From contig PKTZ01000163.1 in assembly GCA_002868925.1 (NCBI GenBank), forward strand, positions 1 through 56,156: DNA of 56,156 nt, read 5' to 3'. Made by a program: the position numbers and the translations under genes. Below the pieces are notes generated by a model. The model was not told the origin of the DNA and ran no database searches. It was given only the letters and a program-made list of their open reading frames with translations. This DNA comes from Desulfuromonas sp. Lineage in GTDB: Bacteria; Desulfobacterota; Desulfuromonadia; Desulfuromonadales; UBA2294. Of the stretch, positions 3,098-7,430 are shown one piece after another (within the stretch, counting starts at the first letter, position 1; each line of letters starts with the position of its first letter).

Positions 3098-3487
3098 ATG
3101 AATATCCTGTTCAGGACGATCATCGCGCTCGTCTCATATATTATCCTCGGTTTCTTCTTTTACTGGTTCCCTTTCTCCCTGTTCGGACTCGATGATACGA
3201 TGCACTCCGCGTTGACCCATCTCAGCGCCGCTTTACTCGCCATGGTCCTCTGGTGGAAACTCCGGGAACGCCAACCCGGCCCTGTAACAAGCGCCCTGGT
3301 CGGAGCAATTCTGATCGGCACCGTCGGCTTCGCCGCTGGCTTCTTCGGACCGATGCTGCTGACCCCCGAGGCAAACCAGGGGCCGTTGCTCGGAATTTTC
3401 ATTACCGGCCCGGGAGGCTTCCTGCTCGGGGCCATCGGCGGTGTACTCTACTGGCGCTGGAAGTTGTCACCCAATGACGATTCCTGA
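3098..3487 (+). CDS. Hypothetical membrane protein (about 4 TM)
   Basis: Hydrophobic segments; GFFGPMLLTPEANQGPLLGIFITGPGG Gly-rich motif. Confidence 0.7.
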   Translation: MNILFRTIIALVSYIILGFFFYWFPFSLFGLDDTMHSALTHLSAALLAMVLWWKLRERQPGPVTSALVGAILIGTVGFAAGFFGPMLLTPEANQGPLLGIFITGPGGFLLGAIGGVLYWRWKLSPNDDS

Positions 3488-3533
3488 CTCCGTGAACTTC
3501 ACCTTTATCTGCAGATGATGTAGAATGCCGGAC

Positions 3534-3740
3534 ATGTGCAGCGACAACCCCGAAAAATCCCCCTGGATGTGCCATGTCTGCAGCCACACCTCCAACGACA
3601 GCGAGCCGATCGCCTGCTCGGTCTGCTACAAGGTGACCTGTGCCCTGCACCTGGCGCACAAGACGGTGCTCAATGAGGAGAGTGGACTGTATGAGTTGCA
3701 GCCGATTTGTGTTGAGTGCCAGATTAAGCCGCATCTTTAG
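3534..3740 (+). CDS. Small Cys/His-rich putative zinc-binding protein
   Basis: CHVC...CSVC-x4-CALH...CVEC; start placed at ATG 3534, 7 nt after TAGAAT (alternative ATG 3525). Confidence 0.7.
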   Translation: MCSDNPEKSPWMCHVCSHTSNDSEPIACSVCYKVTCALHLAHKTVLNEESGLYELQPICVECQIKPHL

Positions 3741-3796
3741 TCATTTCTGTTTTCTTTTTTAAGATCAAAGTCGTGGGGTCCCGGCCTCACACTCCG

Positions 3797-3841
3797 GGTT
3801 CGTTTCTTTATTAAGCCATAAAGAAACGAACCAAAGAAACG
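3797..3841. repeat. Perfect 15-bp inverted repeat with a duplicated arm (REP/MITE-like)
   Basis: GGTTCGTTTCTTTAT-taagcc-ATAAAGAAACGAACC followed by a second AAAGAAACG. Confidence 0.6.
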
Positions 3842-3866
3842 GCTCCCTTGCAGGGGGCTTTTTTTC
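3842..3866 (+). terminator. Intrinsic terminator-like hairpin
   Basis: GCTCCCT-tgc-AGGGGGC followed by T7. Confidence 0.6.
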
Positions 3867-3893
3867 GTTTAGTCGTTTTTCCTCTTTTGTGAA

Positions 3894-4090
3894 CTCGGTG
3901 GTAGGGAGATCGCCTTGAGGCGATCACAGTATTTCTTCGTGGTTGTCCCGTACAGTCTGCGTTCAAGGAATCGCGCTGACTAACGTGCTCCTCAAGAGCA
4001 ATGGGAGGGGAAGTCAAAATCTTTAATGCTGGAACCACCGGAGCCGTTGATACTTACACCCCGTTTCAGGTTCGAGAGCCACGAAGACGC
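3894..4090 (+). ncRNA. Candidate highly structured, pseudoknotted RNA of unknown class
   Basis: Seven or more helices found by eye; G-U pairs consistent with the + strand; no credible ORF. Confidence 0.55.
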
Positions 4091-4098
4091 GGAATTCG

Positions 4099-4132
4099 GG
4101 GGACACTTCCCGAAGTTCAGGGAAGTGTCCCC
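4099..4132. repeat. REP-like 13-bp perfect hairpin
   Basis: GGGGACACTTCCC-gaagttca-GGGAAGTGTCCCC. Confidence 0.6.
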
Positions 4133-4175
4133 ACCCAAACGGTCGGGTTTCAGCCGTACGAGCATGGAAACAAAC

Positions 4176-4205
4176 AAAAAAGACCCGGACAGCAATGCCC
4201 GGGCC
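4176..4205 (-). terminator. cysS operon terminator
   Basis: Minus strand GGCCCGGGCA-ttgc-TGTCCGGGTC followed by T6, 25 nt after the cysS stop. Confidence 0.7.
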
Positions 4206-4228
4206 TCGTATCTACCTATCAATCAAAC

Positions 4229-5707
4229 CTATTTCAACTTCCAACTCGTCCCCTCACGTGAATCGAGCAGGATAACCCCCTTCTCATCGAGCTCGTCGCG
4301 AATCTCGTCGGCGCGAGCGAAGTTCTTATCAACCCGCGCCTGCTTGCGCTCGGCGATCAACCCTTCGATCTGCTCGGCGCTCAGGTCACCATCCTGCAGG
4401 GCGTCGCTCTTCTGCTTCTCCAACCAATCGGTCGGATCGGAAGCGAAGAAGCCGAGGACCGCGCCGAGGCGACGTAACTTTTTGACGCCGTCTGCAAGCA
4501 CCTTGAGTGACAGTGGACAGTCGTCGAACCGCTTCTCGCCGAGCAGGCGATTGAGGGCACGAACCACATCGAACAGGTTGCCGAGGGCGAGGGCGGTATT
4601 AAAATCGTCGTCCATCGCCTCGGCAAATTTTTCCTCCATCATCTCGACCCGATCGAAGATCTCGCGCTCTTCGTCCTTGATTTCCGGGCAGACCGCCTTG
4701 GTCGCCGGATTGCTGGCGATGATTTCATCGGCCGCCTGCAACATTTCGTAGAACCGGGTCAATCCGGCCTTGGCATCCTCGAGGTTCTTATCGGAAAAAT
4801 CGATCGGCGAACGGTAGTGGGCCGAGAGGATAAAGAAACGGACCACCTCCGGATCATACTTTTCGAGGATGTCACGGATGGTGAAGAAGTTGCCGAGCGA
4901 CTTGCTCATCTTCTCCTGATTGATATTGACGAAGCCGTTGTGCATCCAGTACTTGACGAACGGCTTGCCGCTCGCCCCTTCCGACTGGGCGATCTCGTTC
5001 TCGTGATGCGGGAAGACCAGGTCCTTGCCACCGCCATGGATATCAAAGGAGTCGCCGAGCAGCGACGAGCTCATGGCCGAGCACTCGATGTGCCAGCCGG
5101 GACGGCCCGGTCCCCAGGGCGATTCCCATGCCGGTTCATTCGGCTTGGCCGCTTTCCAGAGGGCGAAGTCCATCGGGTTGCGCTTCTGCTCGCCCGGTGC
5201 GATACGGGCGCCGGCCTGCATCTCGTCCATGTTGCGTTTGGAGAGCTTGAGGTAGTTGTCGAACTTTTCGACCGCGTAGTAGACGTCGCCGCCCGACTCG
5301 TAGGCGATCCCCTTGTCGACCAGGGTCGCGACCAGGGCGACGATCTGCTCGATGTACTCGGTCGCCTTCGGCTCATGGGTCGGCCGCTCGAGGCCGAGCG
5401 CCGCCATATCCTCGTCGAAGGCCTTGATGAACTCCTCCGAGAGAGCCTTGCTCGAAATCCCCCGCTCGTTGGCACGGTTGATAATCTTGTCGTCGACGTC
5501 GGTATAGTTGCGGACGTAATTGACGTCGTAACCGGCGTACTTGAGGTAGCGGTAGATGACATCGAAGACGATGTTGGCGCGGGCGTGGCCGATGTGGCAG
5601 TAATCGTAGACGGTGACGCCGCAGACATACATCCCGACCTTGCCCGGGACCAGCGGCTCGAACGGCTCCTTGCCGCCACTCATGGTGTTGTAAAGACGTA
5701 ATGCCAT
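4229..5707 (-). CDS. cysS: Cysteine--tRNA ligase
   Basis: [45 protein letters not shown]; ATG 5707 with AAGGAG SD. Confidence 0.98.
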
Positions 5708-5768
5708 GTCCTGAAAAACTCCTTGCTTAATATTCCTCGGGTGGCGAGAGGCTCGCCATGACCGTTTT

Positions 5769-7430
5769 CTACTTGTTCTGGACCTTGGCCCAGGTATCGC
5801 GCAGGGTGACCGTCCGGTTGAAGACCGGGCTTCCCGGCGTCGAGTCGTTTCCGTCGGCGGTGAAGTAGCCGACCCGCTCGAACTGGAACGCCTCACCCGC
5901 TTCGGCCTTTAACAGCTGCGGCTCGACCCAGGCGGTGATCTCCTGCAGCGACTCCGGGTTGATCCCCTGGTGAAAGTCTTCGAGTTTGTCCGGGTTCTCG
6001 TCGCAAAACAGACGATCGTAAAGCCGCACCGGGACCTGCGCGCCGCGAGTGGCGGAGACCCAGTGGATCGTCCCCTTGATCTTGCGCCCGTCCTTCGGGT
6101 TGGCGCCGAAGGTCTCCGGATCGCAGCTGCAGTGCAGGGCGATCACCTCACCGGTTTCGTTCTTTTCGACCTCGTCGCAGCGGATAATGCAACCGTTACG
6201 CAAACGGACTTCACGGCCCGGCCCGAGCCTGAAGAACTTCTTCGGCGGATCCTCCATGAAGTCGCTCCGCTCGATCACGATCTCCCGGGTCAGCGGCAGT
6301 GAGCGTTTACCCAGCTCCGGCTTCTGCGGATGGTTGGCGGCACTGCATTCGATTTCGTCCTGCGGCAGGTTGGTAATGATCACCTTCAGCGGGTCGAGAA
6401 CCGCCTGCCGGCGCGGGGCGGATTCGTTGAGTTGTTCCCGGACCGTATCCTCGAGCACCGAGAGATCGATGCGCGAGTCGGCCTTGCCGACCCCGATGCG
6501 GTCGCAGAAATCACGGATCGCCTCCGGCGGGTAGCCGCGGCGCCGCATCCCGACCAGGGTCGGCATGCGCGGGTCATCCCAACCGGAAACCCGTTTCTCG
6601 GTGACCAGCTGCAGCAGCTTGCGCTTGCTCATCACGGTGTAACTCAGGTTGAGCCGGGCGAACTCGATCTGCTGCGGCGCGAAGATTTCCAGCTCCTGCA
6701 CCAGCCAGTCGTAGAGCGGCCGATGGTCGGCGAACTCGAGGGTGCAGATCGAGTGGGTCACCCCCTCGATCGAGTCGGACTGGCCGTGCGCGAAATCGTA
6801 CATCGGGTAGATGCACCAGCTATCGCCGGTGCGGTGGTGAGCGGCATGCAGGATACGGTAGAGCACCGGGTCGCGCATATTGAGGTTGCCGGATGCCATA
6901 TCGATTTTGGCCCGCAGGACATGCTCACCATCGGCGAATTCGCCTTCCCGCATTTTACGGAAGAGATCGAGGTTCTCCTCGATCGACCGCTCGCGGTAAG
7001 GGCTCTCCTGACCCGGTTCGGTCAGGGTCCCGCGCAGTTCGCGGATCTTCTCCGGCGGCAGGCTGCAGACGTAGGCCTTCCCCTTTTCGATCAGCTTCTC
7101 GGCATACTGGTAGAGCTGCTCGAAATAGTTGGAAGCAAAATAGAGGTGTTCGCCCCAGTCGAAACCGAGCCAGCGCAGGTCGTCCTTGATCGCCTCGACA
7201 TATTCATCCTCTTCCTTGACCGGGTTGGTGTCGTCGAAGCGGAGATGACAACGCCCCTTGAAGTCCTCGGCGAGGCCGAAGTTGAGGCAGATCGACTTGG
7301 CATGGCCGATATGCAGGTAGCCGTTCGGCTCCGGCGGAAAACGGGTGACGACGGCATCGCGTCGTCCCTGCTCAAGATCGTCCTCGATGATATTACGGAT
7401 AAAGTTACTGGTCGGTTCCTGTTGACTCAC
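5769..7430 (-). CDS. glnS: Glutamine--tRNA ligase
   Basis: [43 protein letters not shown]; GTG start at 7430 preferred. Confidence 0.97.

Follow-up and report, generated by a model that had tools for sequence, protein, structure and literature searches.

A truncated copy of a gene-free mosaic repeat next to cysS in a Desulfuromonas contig

The window analysed here is a 56,156-nt stretch of Desulfuromonas sp. DNA (contig PKTZ01000163.1 of assembly GCA_002868925.1, forward strand), and the region under study, 3894-4090, lies to the left of cysS (4229-5896, minus strand; Pfam tRNA-synt_1e, E 3e-139). A preliminary description had presented this region as an orphan multi-helix RNA of about 200 nt with one or two pseudoknots. 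Comparison within its own assembly (G000; 2.57 Mb, 216 contigs, 87.7% complete) and with three congeners (G001, G002 and G003), the genus totalling four draft genomes of 82-98% completeness, places 3894-4090 in the interior of a single gene-free repeat copy that is truncated on its right. A terminator scan found that the interval 3860-4180 is bounded by two convergent terminator-like hairpins, one on the plus strand at 3841-3859 with a T tail and one on the minus strand at 4207-4180. The left neighbour is a 71-aa Cys-rich frame (3525-3740, plus strand) with several CxxC pairs and no Pfam match. This frame is kept in G001 at the same position before cysS (79% nucleotide identity), and the sole sigma-70-like site that a promoter scan of 3400-4400 returned, at 3498-3526, precedes it.

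The region is not an orphan. A search of its own assembly with 3860-4180 retrieved at least 12 other places (120-230-nt matches, 67-83% identity), as well as many copies of a palindrome located at 4099-4132, and a covariance model of the core (R1; 3891-4018) finds at least 14 copies in G000. With an extended query, similarity begins near 3740-3765, and other copies continue well beyond 4090. A 475-position hidden Markov model (HMM) built from 10 full G000 copies gave 43 matches in that assembly, ten of them full-length; besides the window copy, three others are partial, and six contain only positions 236/242-475. Partial copies in the assembly number about 12, next to the 10 full ones, and all 22 clusters of matches are intergenic. 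The window copy breaks off at about 4093-4100, while other copies run some 145 positions further.

When a full copy was used as the query, 57, 20 and 71 matches were obtained in G001, G002 and G003, respectively. In these genomes, only the first ~250 positions are conserved, and they are followed by several different continuations. The unit is therefore a module of about 250 nt (3766-4018), conserved in all four genomes of the genus. With 23 candidates scored per genome, R1 copies numbered 14 in G000, at least 23 in G001, at least 23 in G003 and 11 in G002. None was found in the 147 other genomes sampled from the order (4 positives among 151 genomes and 1 among 64 genera), nor outside the genus in a class-wide sample (2 positives among 151 genomes, 57 genera searched). 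The 475-nt form consists of a module and a diverged inverted module, because a module HMM matches the right ends of the 475-nt copies on the opposite strand (module positions 2 to ~110-179, E 1e-11 to 1e-17). Modules also occur in tandem (contig C101 of G000 and several G003 contigs), so that single, tandem and inverted-pair arrangements are all represented.

We aligned 40 distinct copies from the four genomes, with shuffling and sliding as controls; the slid background was 43-45% of cells paired. The features of the locus are listed below, with the fraction of paired cells and the pairs showing double changes in this alignment.

3766-4100, plus strand: right-truncated copy of the 475-position repeat (HMM positions 1-331 only, E 1.8e-88).
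3766-4018, plus strand: the ~250-nt module, aligned from the 40 copies (module HMM positions 2-247, E 7.8e-61).
3773-3790, no strand assigned: H1, a G+C-rich hairpin of 6 bp with a 6-nt loop, at the module's outer end (98.3% of cells paired; double changes in 3 of 6 pairs).
3797-3841, minus strand: H2, a hairpin (3797-3811/3818-3832) with an A-rich tail at 3833-3840 (86-91% of cells paired; double changes in 13 of 15 pairs).
3842-3865, plus strand: H3, an intrinsic-terminator-like hairpin (3842-3847/3853-3858) followed by a T run at 3859-3865 (94.6% paired).
3908-3925, no strand assigned: H4, a hairpin of 7 bp with a 4-nt loop (98.9% paired; double changes in 4 of 7 pairs, in 19, 14, 8 and 4 sequences).
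3926-3940, plus strand: H5, a short G-U-rich helix (3926-3929/3937-3940) with weak support (89.4% of cells paired).
3941-4018, no strand assigned: the rest of the module core, with conserved sequence blocks and no supported structure found.
4070-4093, minus strand: innermost remnant of the diverged inverted second module, holding the 3' partner of an 11-bp helix discussed below (limits set by eye).
4099-4132, no strand assigned: a perfect 34-nt palindrome, REP-like (repetitive extragenic palindromic), a sub-module of the mosaic, sitting where the window copy is cut off.
4180-4207, minus strand: terminator-like hairpin of cysS from the terminator scan, outside the repeat.

From the outside inwards, the module reads H1, H2 with its tail, H3 with its T run, a spacer, the H4-H5 domain and about 80 nt of conserved, unstructured sequence. 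The right-hand inverted module has been lost from the window copy except for ~25 nt. As had been supposed, the hairpins flanking 3894-4090 belong with it, being parts of the same mosaic repeat. The palindrome at 4099-4132 has 13-nt arms and an 8-nt spacer and is matched once in the window against 0 expected. It is present in 14 copies on 11 G000 contigs, 12 of the 14 in or beside module copies, and G003 has many more of them; some G000 copies carry it in the tip of H2.

The pairings originally read from the sequence are complementary as described. The closing stem 3894-3902/4034-4043 has 9 bp with one bulge, and complementarity is also present for 3908-3914/3919-3925, 3927-3933/4025-4031, 3946-3951/4001-4006 and the hairpins 3954-3981 and 3986-4000. 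The long-range helix 3934-3944/4077-4087 extends over 11 bp, and 4007-4014 is complementary to 4052-4055 plus 4059-4062. The fold of 3894-4090 is no better than chance on either strand. On the plus strand its minimum free energy is -63.6 kcal/mol against -59.6 +/- 4.1 kcal/mol in shuffled controls (z -0.97), with 31 of 200 dinucleotide shuffles folding as well, and on the minus strand z is -1.00. That the region matches no Rfam family was confirmed, since Rfam 15 gave 0 matches at the gathering threshold over the whole window. In E-value mode (E <=10), 3700-4260 yielded 19 sub-threshold matches, none of them meaningful. The best were BTnc231 (27.4 bits, threshold 80.4) and Phe_leader (27.6, threshold 55), which reflect H2 and H3, and only one chance microRNA-model match (E 6.6) fell within 3894-4090.

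RNAalifold predicted 33 pairs on the 40 copies, 21 of them with double changes. When the five module helices and three of the helices from the preliminary description were counted together, 35 of 57 pairs showed double changes, against 26.2 +/- 2.4 after shuffling, a value that 0 of 500 shuffles reached; the whole 40-copy structure outperforms every one of the 500 shuffles on four of the five measures. Because copies from one species share stem variants, these counts represent few independent events, with about four or five variants of H4 on reading the alignment. Compensatory changes support four hairpins, namely H1, H2 and H3, which lie upstream of 3894-4090, and H4; H5 is weakly supported. 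Hairpins kept by compensatory change place the repeat under selection for folding. A chance fold in ordinary spacer DNA would agree with the window copy folding no better than its shuffles. However, this explanation is refuted by a copy number that runs to dozens over the four genomes and by the compensatory changes of four hairpins, and we accord it virtually no probability.

Among the helices first proposed, H4 alone has clear compensatory support. The others fall well short over the 40 copies, with 68% of cells paired in 3946-3951/4001-4006, 60% in 3954-3981 and 46% in 3986-4000. H5, which was absent from the earlier listing, competes with the 11-bp helix for 3937-3940, and the window copy has one A-C mismatch in it. 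The long-range helices were assessed on 13 aligned G000 copies, a sample that favours the proposed structure because that structure was derived from one of them. Taken whole, it has 70.4% of its cells paired, compared with 36-44% in the slid controls. Its covariation does not exceed chance, with 13 double-change pairs against 10.3 +/- 2.0 and 67 of 500 shuffles reaching that number. The closing stem pairs in 77% of cells without any double change, 3927-3933/4025-4031 in 56% and the 11-bp helix in 82%, and the two halves of the supposed pseudoknot pair in just 40% and 48%.

Rather than a designed feature, the 11-bp helix is a by-product of the module having been duplicated in inverted orientation. 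What survives of the second, inverted module at its inner end supplies the 3' strand of the helix, which is therefore the reverse complement of the same module block. The stretch after H5 has a mean folding z over the 40 copies of -0.23 on the plus strand and -0.18 on the minus strand, compared with -1.27 and -2.04, respectively, for H4 and H5 together. Two further candidate pairings were rejected. The long hairpin after H5 (3954-3981) is often drawn in single-sequence folds, but its fixed-column pairing is the 60% given above, and folding after H5 does not exceed that of the shuffles. Pairing between the H4 loop, which has only 4 nt, and a conserved CTCAAG block looks compensatory by eye in a few sequences, but on our count eight G000 copies have an uncompensated loop change. 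A pseudoknotted multi-helix RNA or ribozyme of ~200 nt is thus not borne out, as only H4 covaries among its helices and the fold does not exceed shuffled controls. We infer that the repeat is not a free-standing multi-helix RNA gene.

The favoured proposal had been that the region forms the end of an IS110-family or TnpB/IscB-like element that carries its guide or bridge RNA, the enzyme having been lost or acting in trans. The region is indeed non-coding, repeated, hairpin-rich, without an Rfam match and next to REP-like palindromes. Nevertheless, PF01548 (DEDD_Tnp_IS110) was found in 0 of the four genus genomes, in a search whose control gave matches in 7 of 14 known genomes, and the copies are not the ends of a longer element. 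In G000, neither the TnpB zinc-ribbon (PF07282) nor the Y1 transposase (PF01797) had any match. No enzyme gene adjoins any copy in the four genomes, and no omega-RNA or HEARO-type Rfam model matched. The internal-loop scaffold that a bridge RNA needs is not part of any supported structure, only H4 and H5 being supported within 3894-4090. The guide-RNA explanation is consequently close to refuted, and we consider it highly improbable.

The suggestion that the element is of a gene-free repeat type without an adjoining recombinase agrees with the four genomes, in which no gene family recurs beside the copies. Open frames of at least 120 aa cross the element in 12 sources, but the copies do not preserve the reading frame, and these frames look like translated repeat DNA. 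In the window, a frame of 22 codons that follows GGGAG/TTG was considered as a gene and rejected, as it is likewise not preserved in the 40-copy alignment examined by eye. [quoted passage not shown] In G000, no gene lies between paired ends, in an assembly that, like the other drafts, breaks at repeats. The Y1 transposase is absent from G001 too, while one gene is present in G002 and two in G003. Of these IS200-type matches, one is to a 149-aa frame with which a contig begins; the others are weaker and fall inside frames of 318 and 343 aa, which could be REP-associated transposases.

An empty site, as had been sought in relatives, is found at one locus. Between the same two genes, the site of the 475-nt element is filled in G000 (contig C178, 5692-6163; 625-nt spacer) and empty in G003 (contig C92, 51043-51217; 175-nt spacer). 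The spacers outside the element at this C178 locus are too diverged to align, and the G003 spacer contains two ordinary terminator-like hairpins by eye. At the cysS locus, G001 has a fragment in reverse, and G003 has a copy of opposite orientation. The genes flanking the copy on contig C29, compared by position, also abut modules in G001 and G003. In the relatives, both of these loci contain pieces of modules in other orientations, and both are occupied in every genome examined.

H2 and its tail form three tracts, pyrimidine, purine and mirror purine, which in the module read TTTCTTT / AAAGAAA / AAAGAAA; the H2 loop at 3814-3817 is complementary to 3841-3844. Three variants within the genus change all three tracts in step, as read from the 40-copy alignment. 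A scan of one genome per species for a 17-nt word taken from the H2/H3 junction found it at no fewer than 120 loci in Bacteroidota, Bacillota, Pseudomonadota, Desulfobacterota and other phyla, a spread that is a lower bound given the uneven sampling. Among the 120 listed loci, 97 give a module-HMM match, in nearly every case to positions ~30-80, and the whole module is present in only two, both from one Desulfuromonadales metagenome-assembled genome (MAG). Longer conserved elements in other phyla have the motif as their extreme end, which is the 3' end when read on the minus strand. No conserved neighbour gene family surrounds it in the 120 listed loci from other phyla, and 16 such loci gave 0 Rfam matches. 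Judged by its sequence pattern, H2 with its tail is a triplex- or pseudoknot-type motif spread across phyla.

Several elements outside the genus carry this motif. In Desulfurivibrio-type MAGs and relatives, a multicopy element of ~215 nt (eight loci) begins exactly with the same triplex hairpin, followed by a small G+C hairpin and a long hairpin with compensatory changes between copies; it has no Rfam match. Luteimonas and allied Gammaproteobacteria, and also one Clostridium MAG, each contain several copies of elements that start with an H2-type motif, and in the Luteimonas group a second conserved block lies ~90 nt downstream. At window position 3800, in the 5' arm of H2, the base is G where 32 of the 40 genus copies and 108 of 112 other sites have A, so the window H2 has a G-C pair in place of the mismatch that is otherwise conserved.

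The claim that wobble pairs favour the plus strand stands for H3 (40 G-U on the plus strand against 1 A-C over the 40 copies) and for H5 (38 against 9). For H2 the minus strand is favoured, with 8 G-U on the plus strand against 45 A-C, equivalent to G-U on the minus strand. One rival explanation builds on this strand, taking the modules for real RNA genes or processed RNAs on the window minus strand, with the core and H4 as body. Their 3' cap would be a telomerase-like H-type pseudoknot, its U-rich loop lying in the H2 major groove (U-A-U and C-G-C triples), and this cap would protect the RNA or give a protein a handle. Telomerase RNA and the SAM-II and preQ1-type riboswitches contain H-type pseudoknots in which a U-rich loop forms major-groove triples. 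On the minus strand, H2 would present the comparable order of stem 1, U-rich loop, stem 2, stem 1 partner, short loop and A-rich stem 2 partner, a likeness in layout only.

Outside the genus, 108 of 112 sites have the conserved A-C mismatch of the H2 stem, which is equivalent to G-U on the minus strand, in line with the RNA-gene explanation. The loop and tail covary as a pseudoknot stem, their longest complement averaging 4.23 nt against 2.88 +/- 0.10 nt after shuffling (84 distinct sites, 64 distinct loops). The third tract mirrors the purine arm, with equal A-run lengths in 64 of 128 sites against 43.1 +/- 4.7 (maximum 63 in 2000 shuffles), and the three coordinated genus variants point the same way, as do the motif's position at the minus-strand 3' end of elements in other phyla and the better folding of H4 and H5 on that strand. 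However, no sigma-70-like site lies within the module on either strand in the scan of 3400-4400, and none is conserved by eye in the 40 copies; the wobbles of H3 and H5 lie on the opposite strand, and the body has no supported structure apart from H4. RNA genes of this kind are, on balance, unlikely. We also consider improbable the broader idea that the module and the wider H2-motif family encode RNAs with telomerase-like triple-helix pseudoknot 3' caps, in which the genus-specific H4 core would be the working part, either guiding an unlinked enzyme or serving as a handle for a protein. If true, the cap would correspond, in bacteria, to the triple helices that protect the ends of eukaryotic and viral long non-coding RNAs.

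The same tracts may act as DNA. According to the main text of Holder et al. 2015 (PMC4666352), TMECO elements are G/C-rich, have 9-nt tracts with the consensus CCCTCNCCC N3-6 GGGNGAGGG N3 GGGNGAGGG and are reported from Proteobacteria; PIT, BoxC and TMECO are described there as intergenic, multicopy and located at loci that vary between strains. By analogy, the hairpins and the three-tract motif of the module would extrude or fold in single-stranded or supercoiled DNA. In this state they would be bound by proteins of the nucleoid or of replication, or would cause rearrangement locally, which has been proposed for the G/C-rich TMECO, PIT and BoxC repeats. The tract layout (pyrimidine, purine, mirror purine) is the same as in TMECO, and the orientation and content of occupied loci vary between species, which fits the instability reported in the main text of PMC4666352. 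H4 is a perfect 18-bp palindrome in several copies on reading the alignments, and the conserved unstructured block could be a protein site. In the same source, however, no stable TMECO triplex was found in vivo, and earlier work cited there gives PIT elements neither promoter nor terminator activity. Stem sequences differ between species with pairing kept, a pattern expected of a strand that folds more than of a duplex site recognised by its sequence, and the present data fit DNA and RNA folding alike. An action as DNA therefore seems to us rather unlikely.

In view of its multiplicity, its limits, the absence of genes, the compensated local hairpins, the co-variation of the three tracts and its presence or absence between species, the region is probably best explained as the inner part of a truncated copy of an interspersed repeat that is modular, free of genes, specific to the genus and of a mosaic type like REP, BIME (bacterial interspersed mosaic element) or MITE repeats. 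How such a repeat works is a more tentative matter. Selection would act on folds that one strand forms locally. H3, with its G+C-rich stem and T run (at least 4 T in 32 of 40 copies), has the layout of an intrinsic terminator and is a putative one. The T run follows H3, and an incoming transcript would therefore meet H1, H2 and then the terminator, on both sides in an inverted pair. An outward-facing H1-H2-H3 cassette could in this way end and protect transcripts entering from flanking genes, and H4 would be the recognition hairpin of an unlinked putative protein responsible for spreading or binding the element. In our own count from the open-frame table, the flanking frame is directed into the element on 19 sides and outwards on 12, a bias that is suggestive and not significant. 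That the repeat works in this manner, combining a transcript-end cassette with a recognition hairpin like REP/BIME, BOX/SPRITE or MITE-type elements, is possible, although we hold it to be doubtful.

Several observations weigh against the mosaic-repeat explanation. The conserved, unstructured 3941-4018 block is left unaccounted for, and the strand signals conflict, H2 pointing to the minus strand and H3 and H5 to the plus strand. Two clusters lie between divergent genes, and at the C178 locus a neighbouring gene apparently has its own terminator-like hairpin, seen by eye, before the element. No mobilising enzyme was found, and the retrieved flanks of the Y1 genes of G002 and G003 contain no module or palindrome; a long autonomous relative could be unassembled, given that all four draft assemblies break at repeats. 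No clear target-site duplication emerged, flank repeats of the 10 full copies having a mean longest length of 4.0 nt, compared with 4.2 nt in 90 mismatched pairs. Two full copies do have 7-nt direct flank repeats, at different offsets.

The guide-RNA or ribozyme reading would have been important, but it does not hold. Its replacement by the mosaic repeat removes a false lead and accounts for the eye-catching long-range helix by inverted duplication, while defining a previously undescribed genus-restricted mosaic repeat. It also indicates that a three-tract triplex/pseudoknot motif can form the outer end of much larger composite elements, beside a terminator-like hairpin. This position at the element end suggests transcript end formation or protection as a candidate role.

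REP/BIME units and the REPINs of Proteobacteria are intergenic, gene-free, multicopy repeats of short palindromic units in varied orders and orientations, and REP/BIME units sit in transcribed spacers near gene ends. The module repeat is similarly intergenic and gene-free, with many copies and palindromic units combined in several orders. Unlike REP/BIME, its unit is ~250 nt long and includes a terminator-like hairpin and a triplex-type motif. Unlike REPIN systems, it has no RAYT-type gene (REP-associated tyrosine transposase) beside its copies, and none was found anywhere in the G000 assembly.

Together with REP/BIME, the closest known kinds are the BOX/SPRITE-type modular repeats and MITEs such as Chunjie, beside which the module is set by description. 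According to the review PMC10969869, BOX, RUP and SPRITE of Streptococcus pneumoniae are small non-autonomous repeats that cluster, nest and lose parts, and SPRITE repeats may carry rho-independent terminator-like hairpins; the MITE Chunjie of Geobacter uraniireducens, a related lineage, has 38 full and 57 partial copies. Going by these descriptions rather than by sequence, the module is like them in being small, non-autonomous and modular, with partial copies. As differences, no target-site duplication was seen in module copies, and the core model was found in no other genus of the class-wide sample (57 genera searched).

As to the outer end, neither the module nor an A/T-rich motif of this kind was described in the literature searched, although supplements such as the ITxF tables of PMC4666352 may list such motifs; AAAGAAA and TTTCTTT do not occur in the main text of that paper. 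Membership of TMECO was considered for the H2 motif and set aside, since the three tracts do not match the G/C-rich consensus, although the motif is of the same kind. From its tract pattern, the outer end of the repeat belongs to a triplex-motif family akin to PIT and TMECO as they are presented in that text. It resembles them in its three consecutive tracts with short loops, which change together, and it differs from TMECO in being A/T-rich, with a longer hairpin, a conserved mismatch, a covarying loop-tail helix and a distribution over many phyla.

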